Shown piece by piece: positions 1,777 through 14,225 of a stretch of 14,225 nucleotides of DNA. The notes beneath the pieces are model-generated. The model ran no database searches. It saw only the letters and a program-made list of their open reading frames with translations, and was not told the origin of the DNA. Source of the DNA: a virus (lineage: Duplodnaviria; Heunggongvirae; Uroviricota; Caudoviricetes); the IMG/VR virus record IMGVR_UViG_2778261499_000009, positions 1-14,225 of that record, one strand, 5' to 3'. Positions within the stretch are counted from its first letter, which is position 1; the number at the start of each line of letters is the position of its first letter. The position numbers were made by a program, and so were the translations under genes.

Positions 1777-1977
1777 TTACCCATTGGCGCGGCTTAAGAG
1801 CTTATTTTTGAATTCACAATGGTCACGATATAACCATCTTGCTCGCCCGTGGATAACTTTGGCTTTTGGCAGGTCGCCGGACTTAATCCGGTCATAGATG
1901 AAGGTTTTACCGAAGCCAGTATCGGCCATGATGAATTTCAAATCAACCAGTGAATCAGGCTGTAGTTCGTGTTGCAT
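1777..1977 (-). CDS. AlpA/excisionase-like small DNA-binding protein (putative Xis)
   Basis: 66 aa; segment LKFIMADTGFGKTFIYDRIKSGDLPKAKVIHGRARW matches the AlpA/Xis-type winged-helix pattern (recalled family consensus). Confidence 0.55.
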   Translation of the reverse strand: MQHELQPDSLVDLKFIMADTGFGKTFIYDRIKSGDLPKAKVIHGRARWLYRDHCEFKNKLLSRANG

Positions 1978-2397: not shown

Positions 2398-2558
2398 AAA
2401 ACAAAACTCGCCGTAGCGAGTTCAGATAAAAGAAATCCCCGCGAGTGCGAGGATTGTTAGTTGCGCTCTGCTGCTGCCTTAGCCATTACCATATCCACCC
2501 AATTTCACCAGACATGATTCTCGCAATCACTATTATCACCAAAGTGATAATCACAACT

Positions 2559-3209
2559 TTAACTGGCGGCATCATTCACTCCCTGCGGCGGTTCTGGTAG
2601 CGGCATCCAGTGTGACGGTTTCCACGACGCACCAGGAATTATCCACCCATCATTAGCGTCAGGATGCCCGGGGATGTAAGTAGCCCATTTCATTCGCCAG
2701 TCACCTTTCCTGTCAAACTCCACGGCAACAAGTACGGCTGTTTTGGTATTCGGCATTCGCTCACTACAGCTTATCCAACCATCCGGAGTTACCGGAGAGT
2801 TGCCGGGTTCTTTAATGTGCAAACGAGGCTCACCATCTTTTGGTTCAGGCCACTGGCGCTCCATGTTGATCTTCAATTTATTTTCCATAGCAGCGGTAAT
2901 TTCAGCATCACTGATACCAGCACGGCGCTGTGCATCCCACAACAGGAACTGCATATCAGCCCACTCGCTGAGATCGTCAGGTTCGGCTGCGGCTTCCAGT
3001 GCCTCTTTTGAGAGGTGTTTCAGTGGACCAATGGGGCCAACGCAGCCAAATGTGGAGTCAGACCATTTGGCATGCTCGTGGCGAATCTGTTCGCGTTCCA
3101 GTGATGCCAGTGCAATTCGTGCCAGTTCCATTTGTTCGCCACGAGTAAGCCCGTTTTCAAGCGGATTTTTAATGAATAATTCGATACGTTCTTTGGTAAT
3201 AGTGGTCAT
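2559..3209 (-). CDS. DUF551-domain protein with N-terminal MazG-like (DUF550-type) region
   Basis: C-terminus DGWISCSERMP...VLVAVEF...SHWMPLPEPPQ matches the recalled DUF551 signature (WI..ER.P...VLV....HWMPLPEPP). The N-terminal half resembles prophage dATP/dGTP pyrophosphohydrolase-like domains (less certain). Confidence 0.5.
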   Translation of the reverse strand: MTTITKERIELFIKNPLENGLTRGEQMELARIALASLEREQIRHEHAKWSDSTFGCVGPIGPLKHLSKEALEAAAEPDDLSEWADMQFLLWDAQRRAGISDAEITAAMENKLKINMERQWPEPKDGEPRLHIKEPGNSPVTPDGWISCSERMPNTKTAVLVAVEFDRKGDWRMKWATYIPGHPDANDGWIIPGASWKPSHWMPLPEPPQGVNDAAS

Positions 3210-7275: not shown

Positions 7276-7644
7276 TCAGGCGGCTTTGATAGTCATATCA
7301 TCTGAATCAAATATTCCAGATGTGTCGATATCGGTAATTCTTATTCCTTCGCTACCATCCATTGGAGGCCATCCTTCCTGACCATTTCCATCATTCCAGT
7401 CGAACTCACACACAACACCATATGCATTTAAGTCGCTTGAAATTGCTATAAGCAGAGCATGTTGCGCCAGCATGATTAATACAGCATTTAATACAGAGCC
7501 GTGTTTATTGAGTCGGTATTCAGAGTCTGACCAGAAATTATTAATCTGGTGAAGTTTTTCCTCTGTCATTACGTCATGGTCGATTTCAATTTCTATTGAT
7601 GCTTTCCAGTCGTAATCAATGATGTATTTTTTGATGTTTGACAC
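7276..7644 (-). CDS. hypothetical acidic protein (early-left operon)
   Basis: 122-aa ORF with GTG start (AGGA about 9 nt upstream); strongly acidic (many D/E, C-terminus ...ITDIDTSGIFDSDDMTIKAA); occupies the ral/ea10-like position. Confidence 0.5.
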   Translation of the reverse strand: MSNIKKYIIDYDWKASIEIEIDHDVMTEEKLHQINNFWSDSEYRLNKHGSVLNAVLIMLAQHALLIAISSDLNAYGVVCEFDWNDGNGQEGWPPMDGSEGIRITDIDTSGIFDSDDMTIKAA

Positions 7645-7813: not shown

Positions 7814-8711
<898 letters not shown>

Positions 8712-8869
8712 CTGGATTCTCTTGTCAGTTAGCTTTGGTGGTGTGTGTGAGTCGTAGTCCTGAACGAAAACACCCCACGATTGGCTCATTTGCAGCTAAT
8801 CCGGATTCGCACTTCCGGCCAATGCTTCGTTTCGTATCACACACCCCAAAGCCTTCTGCTTTGAATGCT

Positions 8870-8900
8870 GCCCTTCTTCAGGGCTTAATTTTTAAGAGCA
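8870..8900 (-). promoter_or_regulatory. nutL (boxA + boxB)
   Basis: Minus-strand reading TGCTCTTAA-AAATTAA-GCCCTGAAGAAGGGC; boxB is a perfect hairpin identical to recalled lambda nutL boxB; boxA as CGCTCTTAA in my recollection of lambda. Confidence 0.8.
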
Positions 8901-8939
8901 TCACCTTCATGTGGGTTAGTGCGTCCTGCTGGTGTGTTT

Positions 8940-8968
8940 AGTATCACCGCTAGTGGTATTTGTGTCAA
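8940..8968 (-). promoter_or_regulatory. pL promoter
   Basis: Minus strand -35 TTGACA (plus 8963-8968), 17-nt spacer, -10 GATACT (plus 8940-8945); overlaps oL1/oL2 as in lambda. Confidence 0.75.
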
Positions 8969-9002
8969 CACCGCCAGAGATAATTTATCACCGCAGATGG
9001 TT
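8942..9002. promoter_or_regulatory. oL1-oL2-oL3 cI operator sites
   Basis: TATCACCGCTAGTGGTA (8942-8958), CAACACCGCCAGAGATA (8966-8982), TATCACCGCAGATGGTT (8986-9002); match recalled lambda oL sites, with one difference in oL1. Confidence 0.85.
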
Positions 9003-9157
9003 ATCTGTATGTTTTTTATATAGATTTATTTTTTGCAGGGTTGTGTGGCTTGGGAGGTGATCGAGAGATCAGAATTGCGTTGTTTAGTGAGTTGCACCTA
9101 TTAATTTTAAAATAAATACAATTGGTTATGTGTTTTTAGGTGGGGCGATCGTGAGGC

Positions 9158-9183
9158 AAAGAAAACCCGGCTCGGTGGCCGGG
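9158..9183 (-). terminator. intrinsic terminator ending the cI-region leftward transcript (timm-like)
   Basis: Minus-strand reading: stem CCCGGC / loop CACCGA / stem GCCGGG followed by TTTTCTTT, starting 10 nt after the stop of the 9193..10050 gene. Confidence 0.6.
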
Positions 9184-9192
9184 TTGATGGGA

Positions 9193-10050
9193 TTATCGTT
9201 TATTTCTTTGATGTTTCTTTGCAGACTCAGCTTGAGTGTTTCCATACCTGCGTTTACCGCTATTGTTTTTTCCCCTAGGCTTGCCTTTTTTTCGATCTTC
9301 CCACCAGTCAGGTGCCGGGTCTGGCTCAACATGTAAAGCATCGGCAAGTCCTGATATCAAGCTGTATGACTGAACTCCATCAATGTGCTCTGACAGTGAT
9401 GGGGTAACATTCTGTCTTAGTGGATCAAGAATAAAATCAATACCTTTAATTCTGGCGTGTTTGGCGGCAGGCACAAAGTCTGAGTCCCCAGCAACAAGGA
9501 CAATTACATCAACAAGTTTTTCATAAGCTAAAGTCGTGATATCCATCCCTAGCTTGATATCAACTTGTTTTTGTTTGATGTCATAGTAAAAATCATCATT
9601 TGTCAGTTCATCCCATTTTTTCGTTCCTTTCATCAGAGCATCAAGGGAGAATGTAGTTAGTTGCCATCGCTTATTATCAACAAGATTCCCTAATCTTAAG
9701 GCTGTTTTTCGAGTTTTTCTTAACTCTTCATGCAGCTCCGTTCTCAGAATATATGATTTTTCGAGTTTGAAATTCTTGCGACCAGGCGTCTTATTGCCAG
9801 GCTCAGGAAGTGGAAGGCGTGTTTGAATGTCGAGTGGTGGACAGTCATAGAAGTAAATTCTATAAAGCTCAAGCGGTTCCCTACGTTCTTGTGATTGACG
9901 TTTTCCATTAAGATGGGAAAGAACCATTGACCATATTACTTTCATTATGCATTGCGCAGTCAGTTCATGCTCGGCGAAGTGTTTACGATGCGTAGCATGA
10001 ACACGCTGCATGAAAAAACCCGCATCAATTAAAATTGCTGCTTTCTTCAT
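9193..10050 (-). CDS. NYN/LabA-like (PIN-fold) nuclease-domain protein with Lys/Arg-rich C-terminal tail, in the rexAB position
   Basis: 285 aa; N-terminal MKKAAILIDAGFF and downstream VDVIVLVAGDSDFVPAAKHARIKGIDFI match recalled NYN/LabA hallmark motifs; tail RKKGKPRGKNNSGKRRYGNTQAESAKKHQRNKR is highly basic. Lies between cI and the timm-like terminator, where lambda carries rexA-rexB. No resemblance to RexA or RexB. Confidence 0.65.
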   Translation of the reverse strand: MKKAAILIDAGFFMQRVHATHRKHFAEHELTAQCIMKVIWSMVLSHLNGKRQSQERREPLELYRIYFYDCPPLDIQTRLPLPEPGNKTPGRKNFKLEKSYILRTELHEELRKTRKTALRLGNLVDNKRWQLTTFSLDALMKGTKKWDELTNDDFYYDIKQKQVDIKLGMDITTLAYEKLVDVIVLVAGDSDFVPAAKHARIKGIDFILDPLRQNVTPSLSEHIDGVQSYSLISGLADALHVEPDPAPDWWEDRKKGKPRGKNNSGKRRYGNTQAESAKKHQRNKR

Positions 10051-10060
10051 AAGAGTCCCA

Positions 10061-10120
10061 AAAAAATAGCCCAGAGCCGTTATGCAGATATTAACAATTG
10101 TCTGCGAACGGGGCTGGGCT
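10061..10120 (-). terminator. large imperfect hairpin followed by a U-run, immediately upstream of the NYN gene start (terminator/attenuator-like)
   Basis: Outer stem AGCCCAGAGCCGTT (10068-10081) pairs with AACGGGGCTGGGCT (10107-10120) at 12 of 14 positions; inner stem GCAGA/TCTGC; on the minus strand it is followed by ATTTTTTT and then the ATG 13 nt later. Confidence 0.4.
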
Positions 10121-10130
10121 TGGTTTAATT

Positions 10131-10159
10131 AATCTATGCCAAGTTGACTGTGCCGTCAA
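10131..10159 (-). promoter_or_regulatory. candidate sigma70 promoter reading toward the NYN gene, embedded in a GTTGAC-N6-GTCAAC palindrome
   Basis: Minus strand TTGACG, 17-nt spacer, TAGATT; perfect inverted repeat GTTGAC TGTGCC GTCAAC at 10143-10160. Confidence 0.35.
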
Positions 10160-10177
10160 CATAAAACTTACTTCCTA

Positions 10178-10894
<717 letters not shown>

Positions 10895-10901
10895 TTAAAT
10901 C

Positions 10902-10967
10902 TATCACCGCAAGGGATAAATATCTAACACCGTGCGTGTTGACTATTTTACCTCTGGCGGTGATAAT
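10902..10967. promoter_or_regulatory. oR3-oR2-oR1 with pRM and pR
   Basis: TATCACCGCAAGGGATA (10902-10918), TAACACCGTGCGTGTTG (10925-10941), TACCTCTGGCGGTGATA (10949-10965); pR -35 TTGACT (10939-10944) and -10 GATAAT (10962-10967); SD TAAGGAGG before cro. Confidence 0.9.
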
Positions 10968-10982
10968 AGTTGCATGTACTAA

Positions 10983-11192
<210 letters not shown>

Positions 11193-11199
11193 ATAACCC

Positions 11200-11231
11200 C
11201 GCTCTTACACATTCCAGCCCTGAAAAAGGGC
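11200..11231 (+). promoter_or_regulatory. nutR (boxA CGCTCTTAC, boxB GCCCTGAAAAAGGGC)
   Basis: boxA at 11200-11208; boxB perfect hairpin at 11217-11231; matches recalled lambda nutR. Confidence 0.8.
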
Positions 11232-11255
11232 ATCAAATTAAACCACACCTATGGT

Positions 11256-11290
11256 GTATGCATTTATTTGCATACATTCAATCAATTGTT
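11256..11290 (+). terminator. tR1-like terminator region between cro and cII
   Basis: Hairpin GTATGCA / loop TTTATT / TGCATAC (11256-11275) followed by an AT-rich tract; position equivalent to lambda tR1 (Rho-dependent in lambda). Confidence 0.5.
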
Positions 11291-11300
11291 ATCTAAGGAA

Positions 11301-11333
11301 ATACTTACATATGGTTCGTGCAAACAAACGCAA
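11301..11333 (-). promoter_or_regulatory. pRE with cII-binding TTGC-N6-TTGC repeat
   Basis: Minus strand TTGCGTTTGTTTGC (plus 11320-11333) overlapping the cII start; -10-like AAGTAT (plus 11301-11306). Confidence 0.6.
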
Positions 11334-11607
11334 CGAGGCTCTACGAATCGAGAGTGCGTTGCTTAACAAAATCGCAATGCTTGGAACTGAGAAGACAGCG
11401 GAAGCTGTGGGAGTTGATAAGTCGCAGATCAGCAGGTGGAAGAGGGACTGGATTCCAAAGTTCTCAATGCTGCTTGCTGTTCTTGAGTGGGGTGTCGTCG
11501 ACGACGACATGGCTCGATTGGCACGACAAGTTGCTTCGATTCTCACCAATAAAAAACGCCCGGTGTGCAAGACCGAGCGTTCTGATCAAATACAAATGGA
11601 ATTTTAA
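11311..11607 (+). CDS. cII: cII transcriptional activator (lambda type)
   Basis: From the ATG at 11311 (SD TAAGGAA upstream): MVRANKRNEALRIESALLNKIAMLGTEKTAEAVGVDKSQISRWKRDWIPKFSMLLAVLEWGVVDDDMARLARQV... matches recalled lambda cII; the C-terminal few residues differ. The track ORF begins 60 nt upstream. Confidence 0.95.
   Translation: MVRANKRNEALRIESALLNKIAMLGTEKTAEAVGVDKSQISRWKRDWIPKFSMLLAVLEWGVVDDDMARLARQVASILTNKKRPVCKTERSDQIQMEF
11548..11579 (-). terminator. oop-like antisense terminator overlapping the cII 3' end
   Basis: Minus-strand reading: stem CGCTCGG / 9-nt loop / CCGGGCG (one mismatch) followed by TTTTTTATT; position as for lambda oop RNA. Partner promoter not identified. Confidence 0.35.
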
Positions 11608-11904: not shown

Positions 11905-12852
11905 ATGAGCAATACAGCAAAAATCTACGATTTCAGCGCCGCACACGAGCGCAGGAGCAACAGGATGGAGAACCAGAAAACTGGTTACATTCCGTTGTAC
12001 CGGAGCATTCTGAAACAGTCATGGGCGAAAGATGTTTATCTTCGCACCCTGTGGGAAAACCTTCTCCTGAATGCCGCCAGAAAGCCATACAAAGCGAATT
12101 TCAAAGGTCATGAATGGCATCTGCAACCCGGTCAACTGGTTGTGACAGCAGCTGATTTAGGTCTTCAGTTATGCGACAGACATGGCAAGCCAGCAAGCCG
12201 TGATCAGGTTGAGCGGATGCTTCAGGTTTTTGTGAAAGAGGGGATGATCTCCATTGATGGAGAGAAGCAAAAAGGTCGTGTGATAACCATCACAAATTAC
12301 CATGAATATGCTCAAAAAATGGACAATTTACCCGCACATGAAGCCGCACAAACAACCGCACATGATGCAGCACATGACGAAGACAGTAATGGCGCGGCTT
12401 TCAGAGCACATGCCGCACATGAAAGCGCACATGAAGCCGCACAAACAACCGCACATCATGAACAAGAAGGTATTAACAAGAATATAAATAATACCCCCCT
12501 ACCCCCCAATGGGGGAGGCGATGGGCAGGTTAAACCTGAACGTCGCAAGGCAGAACGAATCGACTACGAATCCTTCCTGAACGCCTACAACACCGAAGTC
12601 GGTGACAGACTTCCACACGCTGTTGCGGTCAACGAGAAACGAAAACGCCGCCTGAAGAAAATCATCCCGCAACTGAAAACGCCAAACGTGGACGGTTTCA
12701 GAGCGTATGTCAGGGCGTTTGTGCATCAGGCCAAGCCGTTTTACTTCGGAGACAACGACACGGGCTGGACAGCTGATTTTGATTACCTGCTGAGGGAAGA
12801 TTCGTTAACTGGAGTACGGGAAGGGAAGTTTGCAGACAGGGGGATTGCATGA
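11905..12852 (+). CDS. phage replication initiator (O-like / P22 gene 18-like) containing the origin
   Basis: 315 aa; N-terminus [10 protein letters not shown] resembles lambda O MTNTAKILNF; position immediately before the helicase; a central low-complexity AHE/AHD-repeat linker is encoded by the iteron DNA; stop overlaps the helicase start (ATGA). Confidence 0.7.
12330..12520. repeat. ori-type iteron cluster + AT-rich tract + C5/G5 palindrome inside the initiator gene
   Basis: GCACATG-containing units recur at least six times; an exact 30-bp direct repeat CGCACATGAAGCCGCACAAACAACCGCACAT occurs at 12333-12362 and 12427-12456; followed by AT-rich GGTATTAACAAGAATATAAATAATAC and CCCCCCTACCCCCCAATGGGGGAGG. 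Confidence 0.65.
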
Positions 12853-14225
12853 GACAGGATATCGAAGCGAGCGTTATCGGTGGCCTGCTGATTGGTGGAT
12901 TAACACCAACCGCCAGCGACGTTCTGGCAACGCTGGAGCCGGAAGCGTTTTCAATTCCGCTCTACCGGAAAGCCTTCGAGGTTATCCGCAAGCAGGCGAG
13001 AAACAGAAACCTAATCGATGCGCTGATGGTTGCCGAGGCGTGCGGAGAGGAGCATTTCACGTCAATCCTGATGACCAGCAAAAACTGCCCGAGTGCCGCA
13101 AACCTGAAGGGATATGCCGGAATGGTCGCGGATAACTATCACCGCCGTCTGGTGCTGGAAATCATGGATGAAATGCGTGAACCAATTCAGAGCGGAACCA
13201 TCGACGCATCGAGTCAGGCGATGGATGAGCTTGTAAAGCGTCTTTCAGCCATCAGAAAGCCCCGTGACGAGGTTAAACCGGTACGGTTAGGGGAAATCAT
13301 CACCGACTACACTGACACGCTTGACAGGCGTCTGAGGAACGGAGAAGAGTCAGATACCCTGAAGACCGGAATCGAAGAACTTGATGCCATCACCGGAGGG
13401 ATGAACGCGGAAGACCTGGTGATAATCGCTGCTCGTCCTGGTATGGGGAAAACCGAACTGGCGCTGAAGATTGCCGAAGGCGTTGCAAGCCGCGTTATTC
13501 CTGGTTCTGACGTCCGGCGCGGAGTGTTGATTTTCTCGATGGAAATGAGCGCATTGCAGATCGCAGAGCGAAGCATTGCCAACGCCGGGAGGATGTCGGT
13601 TAGCGTACTGCGAAATCCTGCATCGATGGATGACGAGGGCTGGGCACGTGTTGCTAACGGAATGAGTCAGCTTGCAGATTTGGATGTATGGGTGGTCGAT
13701 GCCTCGCGGTTATCGGTCGAAGAAATACGCTCAATCGCAGAACGGCACAAACAGGAAAATCCAAACCTGTCACTCATCATGGCGGATTATCTTGGCCTGA
13801 TTGAGAAGCCGAAAGCAGACCGCAACGACCTCGCAATTGCTCACATCTCAGGAAGCCTTAAGGCGATGGCGAAAGACCTGAAAACTCCAGTTATCTCCCT
13901 GAGTCAGCTTTCACGCGATGTTGAGAAGCGACCAAACAAACGCCCGACAAACGCAGATTTGCGTGATTCAGGAAGCATTGAACAGGACGCAGACTCAATC
14001 ATCATGCTCTATCGGGAAGCGGTATATGACGAGAACAGTAGCGCCGCGCCATTTGCTGAAATCATCGTGACGAAAAACCGTTTTGGCTCACTTGGTACGG
14101 TTTACCAGCGGTTCTGTAACGGACACTTTGTTGCATGTGACCAGGATGAAGCCAGACAGATTTGCACAGCATCAAATGCACCCGCTGCACGTGGCAGACG
14201 ATATGCACAAGGGGCTGACGTATGA
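12849..14225 (+). CDS. DnaB-family replicative helicase (P22 gene 12-like)
   Basis: 458 aa; Walker [17 protein letters not shown]; DnaB-like C-terminal RecA-fold motifs ([19 protein letters not shown]); SD AGGGGG 5 nt upstream; stop codon is the last 3 nt of the window. Confidence 0.9.

Follow-up and report, generated by a model that had tools for sequence, protein, structure and literature searches.

A predicted NYN nuclease gene in the rexAB slot of a lambda-type prophage and its covarying leader RNA

The DNA analysed here (the window) is a stretch of 14,225 nucleotides, IMG/VR record IMGVR_UViG_2778261499_000009. It belongs to E. coli APEC O2-211 (NZ_CP006834.2), where it forms a prophage that adjoins the csc sucrose locus. 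Between its cI gene and the terminator upstream of pL, where lambda carries rexA and rexB, it has a gene of the NYN family (LabA/MARF1-type, PIN-like; 9193-10050, minus strand, 285 residues), referred to below as the NYN gene. Our main finding is that the structure of the leader RNA of this gene is under selection, and that a promoter-like element, the leader and the open reading frame (ORF) move as one unit. This unit is probably an autonomous nuclease cassette that is restrained by its cognate leader RNA and serves as a conflict effector. Taken as a whole, the observations are best explained by an NYN endoribonuclease cassette that is self-regulated by its leader and acts in conflict, a reading to which we give a probability of roughly one half. 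What appears to be new is the tight, phylum-spanning coupling of an NYN subfamily to a covarying leader RNA missing from Rfam, the description of a rex-slot gene as an autonomous, self-regulated unit instead of a cI-operon passenger, and the survey of the slots that the NYN gene occupies.

The leader RNA of the NYN gene

On the minus strand, the 5′ region of the cassette runs from the cI stop (10178) to the ATG (10050) in the order palindrome and −35, −10, hairpin, A plus U7, GGGA and ATG. The sigma-70-like promoter (10131-10160) has the −35 hexamer TTGACG (10159-10154), a 17-nucleotide spacer and the −10 hexamer TAGATT (10136-10131), and it is overlapped by a palindrome, GTTGACggcacaGTCAAC (10160-10143), which is a possible operator. 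The leader hairpin (10068-10120), of the form that we call type A, was recognised by RNA folding, by covariation and by the covariance model R1 (80.5 bits); it spans about 53 nucleotides in three tiers and has a 13-nucleotide loop, CAAUUGUUAAUAU. Directly 3′ of the hairpin lie the A and U7 of a terminator-like tail (10060-10067), followed by a GGGA resembling a Shine-Dalgarno (SD) sequence (10059-10056). The same arrangement was found in every homologue context, down to about 46% protein identity. Of 13 diverged lineages, 12 have a TTGAC hexamer 107-124 nucleotides 5′ of the ATG, and the palindrome GTTGACggcacaGTCAAC recurs in many lineages, not all. Because a promoter-like element and a structured leader of its own precede the ATG, we regard the cassette as an autonomous unit and not as a passenger of the cI operon. 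A first-pass annotation of this DNA had taken the gene to be expressed in the lysogen; with the promoter-like element and terminator-like leader in front of the ATG, expression simply as part of the cI operon, like that of rexAB, is unlikely, and the NYN gene would not simply be a rider on the cI transcript.

Covariation was measured on 14 distinct type A leaders, with 500 shuffles and slid pairing partners as controls. In the real alignment 94.5% of the cells are paired, compared with 79% in the shuffles and 28-46% when the partners are slid, and 14 of the 17 pairs have changed on both sides. The covariation score, 0.557 versus 0.259, was reached by none of the 500 shuffles, and RNAalifold independently predicts the same structure. 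G-U pairs are confined to the sense strand, and the unpaired nucleotides A..UUA of the loop are nearly invariant. A U-tract is found in all type A leaders and in most leaders of a second form, type B, described below; in the window the stem base GGGCU, continued by A and U7, has the G+C-rich stem and U-tract of a terminator. Two other accounts of the hairpin were considered and rejected. It is not a DNA palindrome or operator, since complementarity and not sequence is kept and the sense strand alone shows G-U pairs, nor is it the terminator of the upstream gene, since it accompanies the NYN gene everywhere and lies 3′ of the cassette's promoter-like element.

The leader is highly specific to its gene. 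In 835 kb searched with R1, 86 matches reach 39 bits or more. The sense strand carries every one of them, and 85 lie directly 5′ of an NYN start; the next-best scores are at most 24 bits and lambda has no match. The remaining match (7478-7551 of locus L004) is upstream of an apparent second copy of the cassette in an Stx2a phage. R1 also marks 25 genome loci. Rfam 15 has no match at the window leader (E-values up to 10), at the gut-phage loci or at the type B loci, and no publication describing the NYN leader was found in the literature searched. As a side observation, tblastn places the NYN gene twice in the record of that Stx2a phage, Stx2_EH0505. Its second leader (within L004 7091-7551; R1, 82.3 bits) follows a partial cI duplicate and an element of the IS3 insertion sequence (IS) family, which points to a duplication of the immunity region in association with the IS.

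Type B leaders occur in Alpha-, Beta- and other Gammaproteobacteria, in Acidobacteriota, Polyangium and Elusimicrobiota, on Xanthomonas plasmids and in a phage. Their outer helix (GCCCCUGG/CCAGGGGC) shows compensatory change in 6 of 8 pairs. The inner helix is hypervariable and MAFFT was unable to align it, so that an arm-swap energy test took the place of column counts: cognate arms give a mean of −10.0 kcal/mol and swapped arms −4.2 kcal/mol, with 18 of 240 swaps as stable as the cognate pairing. The internal loop, 5′-CAGUA(C/A) facing 5′-CGAnC, is nearly invariant. By eye, this loop (columns 18-23 and 57-61 of alignment A5; for example at L154 2892-2960) resembles the bulged-G motif AGUA/GAA of loop E and the sarcin-ricin loop. 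The sarcin-ricin loop of 23S rRNA is a cleavage target of some PIN-domain toxins, VapC20 among them, and given this likeness the leader might mimic the substrate of the enzyme.

A second covariance model, R2, was searched against 671 kb, where all 29 matches lie directly 5′ of the NYN gene, 11 of them outside the training set. Loci of Marinomonas, Proteus and uncultured Gammaproteobacteria are matched by both R1 and R2, which links types A and B. Leader type tracks protein clade and not host, and Pseudomonas has both types. Phages from gut metagenomes, with Bacteroides-type promoters, carry a related multi-stem leader with CUAC/CAAC junctions, in which 3 compensatory pairs were seen on shallow diversity. 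In the Rhodanobacteraceae the SD sequence is strong (AAGGA), the hairpin is kept, its loops often have AUCC, and the U-tract is absent.

The NYN protein in place of RexA and RexB

The ORF at 9193-10050 is uninterrupted and carries the motifs ILIDAGFF and VLVAGDSDFVPA; its product has a core of about residues 1-257 and a disordered, Lys/Arg-rich tail (258-285). Pfam PF01936 (NYN) scores 36.8 bits against a gathering cutoff of 24.2, over residues 158-205, which take in just the GDSDF half of the domain. With TIGR00288 the score is 29.6 bits, far under the 178-bit cutoff of that model, and the protein is therefore not that equivalog. As a whole it falls in phrog_5783 of PHROGs, a group of unknown function (E = 1.5e-119). 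A sequence-profile search of the PDB gave no match and only fold comparison gave relatives. An AlphaFold2 model made from 30 homologues (predicted local distance difference test score, pLDDT, 86.4; predicted template modelling score, pTM, 0.78; disorder only at about 258-285) has a three-layer alpha/beta PIN-like fold that superposes on solved NYN domains. Across 30 homologues, with identities as low as 42%, no change is seen at D9, D69, D164, D170, D189 or D191, which include the acidic residues expected to bind metal (after strand 1, in the helix motif and in GDxD), nor in the family-specific insertion motifs YYDxPP and RKxALRLG. The roughly 100 residues inserted in the NYN core are several short insertions, not one domain. 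An NYN/PIN-like fold with conserved Asp motifs had been proposed from the sequence at the outset, and the above-cutoff profile match, the modelled fold and the invariant acidic residues agree in placing the protein in the NYN/PIN-like superfamily. On the model, the ORF product is most likely an active-looking LabA/MARF1-type NYN metal-dependent nuclease, an endoribonuclease.

The basic C-terminus, to which meaning had also been attached, fared less well. This stretch has 14 Lys/Arg per 35 residues; many homologues lack it or are acidic there, the prediction makes it disordered, and it is not a family feature. In PADLOC-DB v2 the protein has only partial core matches (HEC-09, E = 2e-4 over 46 residues; the NYN model, E = 1.4e-3) and no full-length match to any system component. 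The first-pass annotation had spoken of an unrecognised system. This holds for the function, which is undescribed in the literature searched, and not for the protein, which RefSeq labels "NYN domain-containing protein" in phage ev099. In several complete genomes, RefSeq and its annotation pipeline PGAP split the intact 858-nucleotide ORF into a pseudogene ("hypothetical protein, missing C-terminus"; the first 118 codons) and a short NYN protein that starts at an internal Met, WP_137413698.1 (117 residues) or WP_224471529.1 (146 residues). The split is seen at 9193-10050 of the window and at L007 4176-5033, L005 10008-10865 and L023 3508-4365. Protein-based surveys therefore undercount or truncate the NYN gene.

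That a single gene of 285 codons fills the rexAB slot, as the result of a cassette swap at a known hotspot, was also part of the first-pass annotation, and both the ORF and exact blastn junctions with lambda confirm it. Window positions 8388-9185 match lambda from N to the base after the rexB stop with 92.6% identity, and 10174-11400 match lambda cI-cro with 98.2% identity; the junctions come from blastn comparisons with lambda, ev099, 2B8 and an Stx2a phage. Lambda homology stops at 9185 and resumes at 10174, and therefore a cassette of 988 bp (9186-10173) replaces lambda 35827-37222, that is, rexB plus rexA. No part of 9186-10173 aligned with lambda rexAB by blastn, and the segment encodes one soluble-looking protein, not a two-gene set. 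The left recombination junction is a timm-type terminator (9164-9185, minus strand), which was found by the terminator scan, is common to lambda and consists of a hairpin, AACCCGGC...GCCGGGTT, with a T-rich tail. In our reading, a recombination event bounded by the end of cI on one side and the timm terminator on the other put the NYN cassette in the place of rexA-rexB. Lambda-immunity phages with rexAB replaced are already known. GenBank immunity-region records EF120455-60 have other genes in the slot, hicAB among them, and the cI-N slot has been published as a mosaic hotspot that is home to rexAB and bstA (PMC8585504).

The genes around the cassette are partly those of lambda. The lambda-type cI repressor (10178-10891, minus strand; 237 residues, 98.2% DNA identity to lambda) is a "LexA family protein" in RefSeq; the N antiterminator ORF (8388-8789, minus strand) lies within the N-pL stretch that is 92.6% identical to lambda, and the promoter scan found a pL-like promoter, TTGACA-17-GATACT (8968-8940, minus strand). 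Convergent with N, at the position of lambda sieB, is an ORF of 167 residues (7892-8395, plus strand) that falls in phrog_1244 (unknown function), has a zinc-ribbon-like CxxC...CxxC motif at its end and has no PADLOC match; it is a second uncharacterised exclusion-gene candidate in the immunity region. At the other end of the window the sucrose permease gene cscB (1-1248) abuts the prophage, followed by a TorI-type excisionase gene (1777-1977, minus strand) and a DUF4942 remnant. The window has no integrase, and RefSeq lists truncated early-region genes at about 2400-3200 (DUF550, DUF551 and a dATP/dGTP pyrophosphohydrolase fragment). The replication module (11905-14225) is not lambda O/P: a replication protein of 315 residues with His/Ala-rich repeats is followed by a DnaB-like replicative helicase. 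The same type of non-lambda module is found in O121 Stx2a phages and illustrates the mosaicism around the immunity cassette.

Distribution of the cassette

The NYN family comprises 7,035 clusters at E ≤ 1e-3 and was found on at least 574 IMG/VR contigs and in at least 589 of about 100,000 species-representative genomes, the latter from Alpha-, Beta- and Gammaproteobacteria, Myxococcota, Acidobacteriota, Verrucomicrobiota, Elusimicrobiota and Bacteroidales. Phages ev099, 2B8, E212 and EC.P3 and about 48 Stx2a phages encode an identical protein (100% identity) and together have at least three different repressor types. Among 5426 complete E. coli genomes there is a match in 275 and a full-length cassette in 74. 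About 200 genomes, mostly O157:H7, have lost all but the 5′ half, which lies at thrW in a remnant resembling CP-933H, and the cassette is intact in APEC and O121 Stx2a phages. In O157:H7 86-24, for example, the leader and a product of 129 residues, WP_000708838.1, stand behind an identical lambda-type cI in a decayed prophage at tRNA-Thr (thrW; L006 3959-4348).

The gene is not tied to the rex slot or to prophages: it also occupies the Q-lysis slot, positions next to integrases, conjugative plasmids, a site at glmS in Proteus and Rhodanobacteraceae chromosomes. Neighbours were analysed at 79 viral (IMG/VR) loci, with the repressor count taken over 75. At 31 of these 75 the NYN gene is directly downstream of a repressor with helix-turn-helix (HTH) and S24 domains, on the same strand; these repressors belong to two unrelated clusters, and in two cases a DUF3024 gene lies between. 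The NYN gene is convergent with a Q antiterminator gene at 12 loci, downstream of a Q-like gene at 2 and beside an integrase at several. It lies in the Q-holin slot of a prophage in Edwardsiella, at a prophage edge just past the integrase in P. syringae, beside HigBA in plasmid-like or integrative-and-conjugative-element-like DNA in P. aeruginosa, and immediately 3′ of glmS in Proteus. In 136 Campylobacter conjugative plasmids of the pTet type it stands between the gene of a SNF2-related protein of 1,931 residues and the MobP1 relaxase region. On Xanthomonas plasmids it lies between IS elements, and it is also found on Aeromonas and Pseudomonas plasmids; a tblastn search of plasmids with the NYN protein gave only one Escherichia record. 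Virulent-looking gut phage contigs carry the gene beside terminase and portal genes.

In all contexts examined the NYN gene is solo, with no conserved protein partner, and toxin-antitoxin (TA) modules are often its neighbours. In Enterobacteria it is overwhelmingly on mobile elements, and in lambdoid prophages it faces away from the lytic operons, in slots of lysogen-expressed genes. Rhodanobacter, Dyella, Frateuria and relatives (L133-L164) have chromosomal homologues of about 213 residues in a shared neighbourhood of an aldo-keto reductase, a LysR regulator, an RluE-type pseudouridine synthase and a TatD-type hydrolase; here ORFs were called crudely in high-GC DNA and the neighbours were recognised from sequence, without a Pfam check. 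The Rhodanobacteraceae form may be a domesticated or an ancestral cellular version of the module.

Some neighbours deserve separate mention. In O121-type Stx2a phages a DUF3024 gene of 113 codons lies between cI and the NYN cassette (L004 3512-3853; L023 4513-4854). It matches the single-gene PADLOC candidate PDC-S43 (E = 7e-42) and phrog_3467, and two conflict-type candidates are therefore stacked in the cI-N slot. A C4 antisense RNA of the P1/P7 immunity type (Rfam) lies no more than about 1-1.5 kb from the NYN gene on a Xanthomonas plasmid (L025 4158-4250, minus strand), and a C4 RNA with its a1/b1 targets is within the same distance of the gene in Pseudomonas paraglycinae (L176 2566-2762, minus strand). 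These C4 RNAs are probably unrelated immunity elements of the mobile genetic elements.

Possible roles of the cassette and comparison with known systems

In a lysogen, the cassette promoter would be active whatever the state of the phage circuit. Its transcripts, together with read-through from PRM and cI, would mostly end at the leader hairpin and U-tract, and the minority that reach the nuclease ORF would keep a potentially toxic RNase low. The invariant nucleotides of the loop and internal loop, set between covarying helices, would form a specific recognition site. The simplest candidate for its reader would be the NYN protein itself, because well-known RNases (RNase III, RNase E, polynucleotide phosphorylase (PNPase) and Regnase-1, which is of the NYN/PIN type) control their own expression by way of structured elements in the mRNAs that encode them; it could cleave or bind its own leader, as a form of autoregulation, or be restrained by the short leader RNA. 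The nuclease would then act on RNA in conflict with phages or mobile elements, by superinfection exclusion or abortive infection, as its position and domain suggest. We infer the conflict role from the three classic lambdoid moron slots, the TA neighbours, the PDC-S43 neighbour and the domain. A wider claim, that the NYN gene and its non-repetitive leader form a phylum-spanning module in which the leader is an RNA antitoxin or a terminator-embedded sensor that would free the enzyme upon infection and the rex, Q-lysis and attachment-site-proximal slots serve abortive infection or exclusion, we regard as speculative and rather unlikely as it stands.

Several observations weigh against a self-regulated conflict cassette. 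The promoter matches the consensus at 9 of 12 positions, and the promoter scan gave no more sites than it did in shuffles. With 17 interrupted pairs and a 13-nucleotide loop the hairpin departs from the usual form of an intrinsic terminator and was passed over by the terminator scan, and a 5′ hairpin with a U-rich stretch can also be read as an mRNA stabiliser or translation enhancer. No published phage-defence test of this NYN family was found in the literature searched. HEC-09, a MARF1-like NYN candidate, gave no protection against the phages tried (10.1101/2024.01.29.577857), and the clone of NYND (DefensePredictor, WP_001399740.1) was scored non-defensive in an E. coli panel (PMC13092281 Table S6). 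The Rhodanobacteraceae copy appears, from its neighbourhood, to be a syntenic and vertically inherited chromosomal gene; this synteny and the missing U-tract suggest a cellular role in RNA metabolism for part of the family. The context of the pTet plasmids, near a relaxase and a SNF2 protein, is compatible with a role in establishment or anti-defence. In the parts of the DefensePredictor table that were searched, the accessions of the NYN-gene fragments did not occur. DefensePredictor DS-3, described as a "PIN domain split between N and C terminus", is a different, VapC-like protein of 340 residues (WP_022645725.1), and "NYN" in PMC12704755 and PMC12557735 is a codon design and not the domain.

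The alternative closest to the first-pass annotation, which had called the gene a strong candidate for an abortive-infection effector, is a single lysogen-expressed protein that replaces RexAB in abortive infection or exclusion, is co-transcribed with cI and binds nucleic acid with its tail. It is attractive in that the slot is identical to that of rexAB and bstA, the modelled nuclease fold has its catalytic set intact, a PADLOC candidate adjoins in Stx2a phages, and the patchy distribution shows that the gene has spread horizontally in recent times (unrelated phages share it at 100% identity; the full cassette is in 74/5426 genomes). However, a promoter and terminator-like leader of the cassette's own lie between cI and the ATG, the tail is disordered and not conserved, the family is specific neither to the slot nor to phages, and there is no RexA/RexB homology. 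The designation as a strong candidate rests on position and domain, beside weak core matches in PADLOC and negative results for HEC-09 and NYND, and we consider an effector of this kind unlikely, though still among the better alternatives.

About equally unlikely, in our estimate, is a module like those of type III TA systems, in which an abundant short leader RNA neutralises the NYN RNase, and an end to its synthesis, when a phage shuts off the host or the element is lost, would release the toxin and lead to abortive infection or post-segregational killing. The order of promoter, structured RNA, terminator-like element and nuclease mirrors ToxIN, leader type and protein lineage co-vary with each other and not with host, a protein partner is never conserved, and TA modules are frequent neighbours. 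The tandem repeats that define known type III antitoxins, however, were not found by Tandem Repeats Finder or a repeat finder in 9900-10400 or 9000-10300; the fold is NYN and not ToxN/AbiQ, the chromosomal hairpin of the Rhodanobacteraceae has no terminator tail, and the literature searched has no link between NYN proteins and type III TA.

The leader could in principle be a riboswitch embedded in a terminator, or a protein-dependent attenuator, that responds to a small molecule or to some factor of host or phage and thereby sets read-through, with the nuclease serving primarily RNA processing or turnover and not defence. The near-invariant unpaired nucleotides between covarying helices (CAGUAC/CGAnC in type B, A..UUA in the type A loop) would suit such a sensor, an aptamer inside a terminator hairpin has a precedent in the thiS riboswitch for hydroxymethylpyrimidine pyrophosphate (HMP-PP; PMC6478431), and RluE-like and TatD-like genes are the syntenic neighbours of the chromosomal copies. 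RNA folding, however, made no alternative anti-terminator fold evident, the element is small and differs between subfamilies, and Enterobacteria carry the gene overwhelmingly on mobile elements; we find this reading somewhat less credible than the previous two.

It is improbable that the leader is generic, a terminator or insulator combined with a 5′ stabilising hairpin that makes a mobile gene work wherever it inserts, is not specifically recognised and has nothing to do with NYN function. Morons typically bring their own promoter and terminator, the hairpin begins a few nucleotides from the predicted transcription start as 5′ stabilisers do, and the U-rich stretch abuts the SD sequence. But an insulator is expected upstream of the promoter and not between promoter and ORF, the loop and junction nucleotides are kept across phyla while the helices covary, the hairpin survives where the U-tract is lost, and R1 and R2 are highly NYN-specific, with generic terminators at 24 bits or less. 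The least likely reading, an establishment or anti-defence factor of mobile elements that would, for example, degrade host immune RNAs or transcripts on entry, draws on the 136 pTet-type plasmids, the Xanthomonas, Aeromonas and Pseudomonas plasmids and the virulent-looking gut phage contigs with the gene beside terminase and portal genes, whereas the lambdoid copies sit in lysogen-expressed slots facing away from the lytic operons and no NYN anti-defence precedent was found in the literature searched.

The lambda rex slot is the oldest known prophage exclusion locus, and its fillers in wild phages reveal prophage-encoded conflict genes. The NYN cassette is common in pathogenic E. coli, yet RefSeq often annotates its gene as two fragments. 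The NYN-specific leader turns an anonymous nuclease gene into a testable RNase-RNA pair; it offers a likely substrate or ligand, a regulatory handle and a safe route to protein expression, and it may explain the absence of a phenotype when NYN candidates are cloned naively. If the RNA does restrain or sense, it would represent a new architecture in toxin-RNA and defence biology, and an RNA-restrained module would be distinct from type III TA and would bring a new class of RNA motif. In that event bacterial NYN enzymes would also be linked to eukaryotic antiviral NYN RNases such as KHNYN, N4BP1 and Regnase-1.

Among known NYN proteins, the domains of MARF1 and LabA (PDB 5yaa, 2qip) share only 15-18% identity with the protein described here, which, compared with these and with eukaryotic Regnase-1, KHNYN and N4BP1, has about 100 extra core residues, including RKxALRLG and YYDxPP, and lacks OST-HTH/LOTUS, KH and zinc-finger partner domains. 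HEC-09, a PADLOC candidate, and NYND are likewise bacterial NYN proteins proposed as defence genes from context or machine learning. The match to HEC-09 is limited to the 46 core residues given above and HEC-09 has an N-terminal HTH-like domain, while NYND, of about 215 residues, was compared by description only. On the RNA side, the HMP-PP thiS riboswitch (PMC6478431) and the rnc, rne and pnp leaders also have conserved nucleotides in a hairpin followed by a U-tract in a 5′ leader; the NYN leader differs from them in that no alternative fold is evident and that it is absent from Rfam 15.

Type III TA systems (ToxIN, CptIN, TenpIN) share with the NYN cassette the order, predicted here, of promoter, structured RNA, terminator-like element and endoribonuclease gene, and are likewise mobile and without a protein antitoxin. 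They have tandem RNA repeats and the ToxN/AbiQ fold; because the NYN cassette has no such repeats and a different toxin fold, it is not a type III TA system. BstA of prophage BTP1, an abortive infection protein, is also the product of a single gene 3′ of prophage repressors, occasionally plasmid-borne or independent of a prophage, and its "aba" self-immunity element resembles the NYN leader in that it is short, conserved, acts in cis and lies where the gene begins (PMC8585504). BstA, however, is not an NYN protein, and aba is reported to be DNA-based (PMC8585504), in contrast to the RNA-type covariation and sense-strand G-U pairs of the NYN leader.

RexA-RexB of lambda occupies the same slot, from the cI stop to the timm terminator upstream of pL, and in both cases the function is presumably an accessory one expressed in the lysogen. 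In lambda, rexAB is co-transcribed with cI. The lambda system consists of two proteins, a sensor and a membrane protein, whereas the NYN cassette encodes one nuclease-fold protein with no sequence similarity to either; and the leader motif is missing from lambda, whereas a promoter-like element and a structured leader come with the NYN gene.

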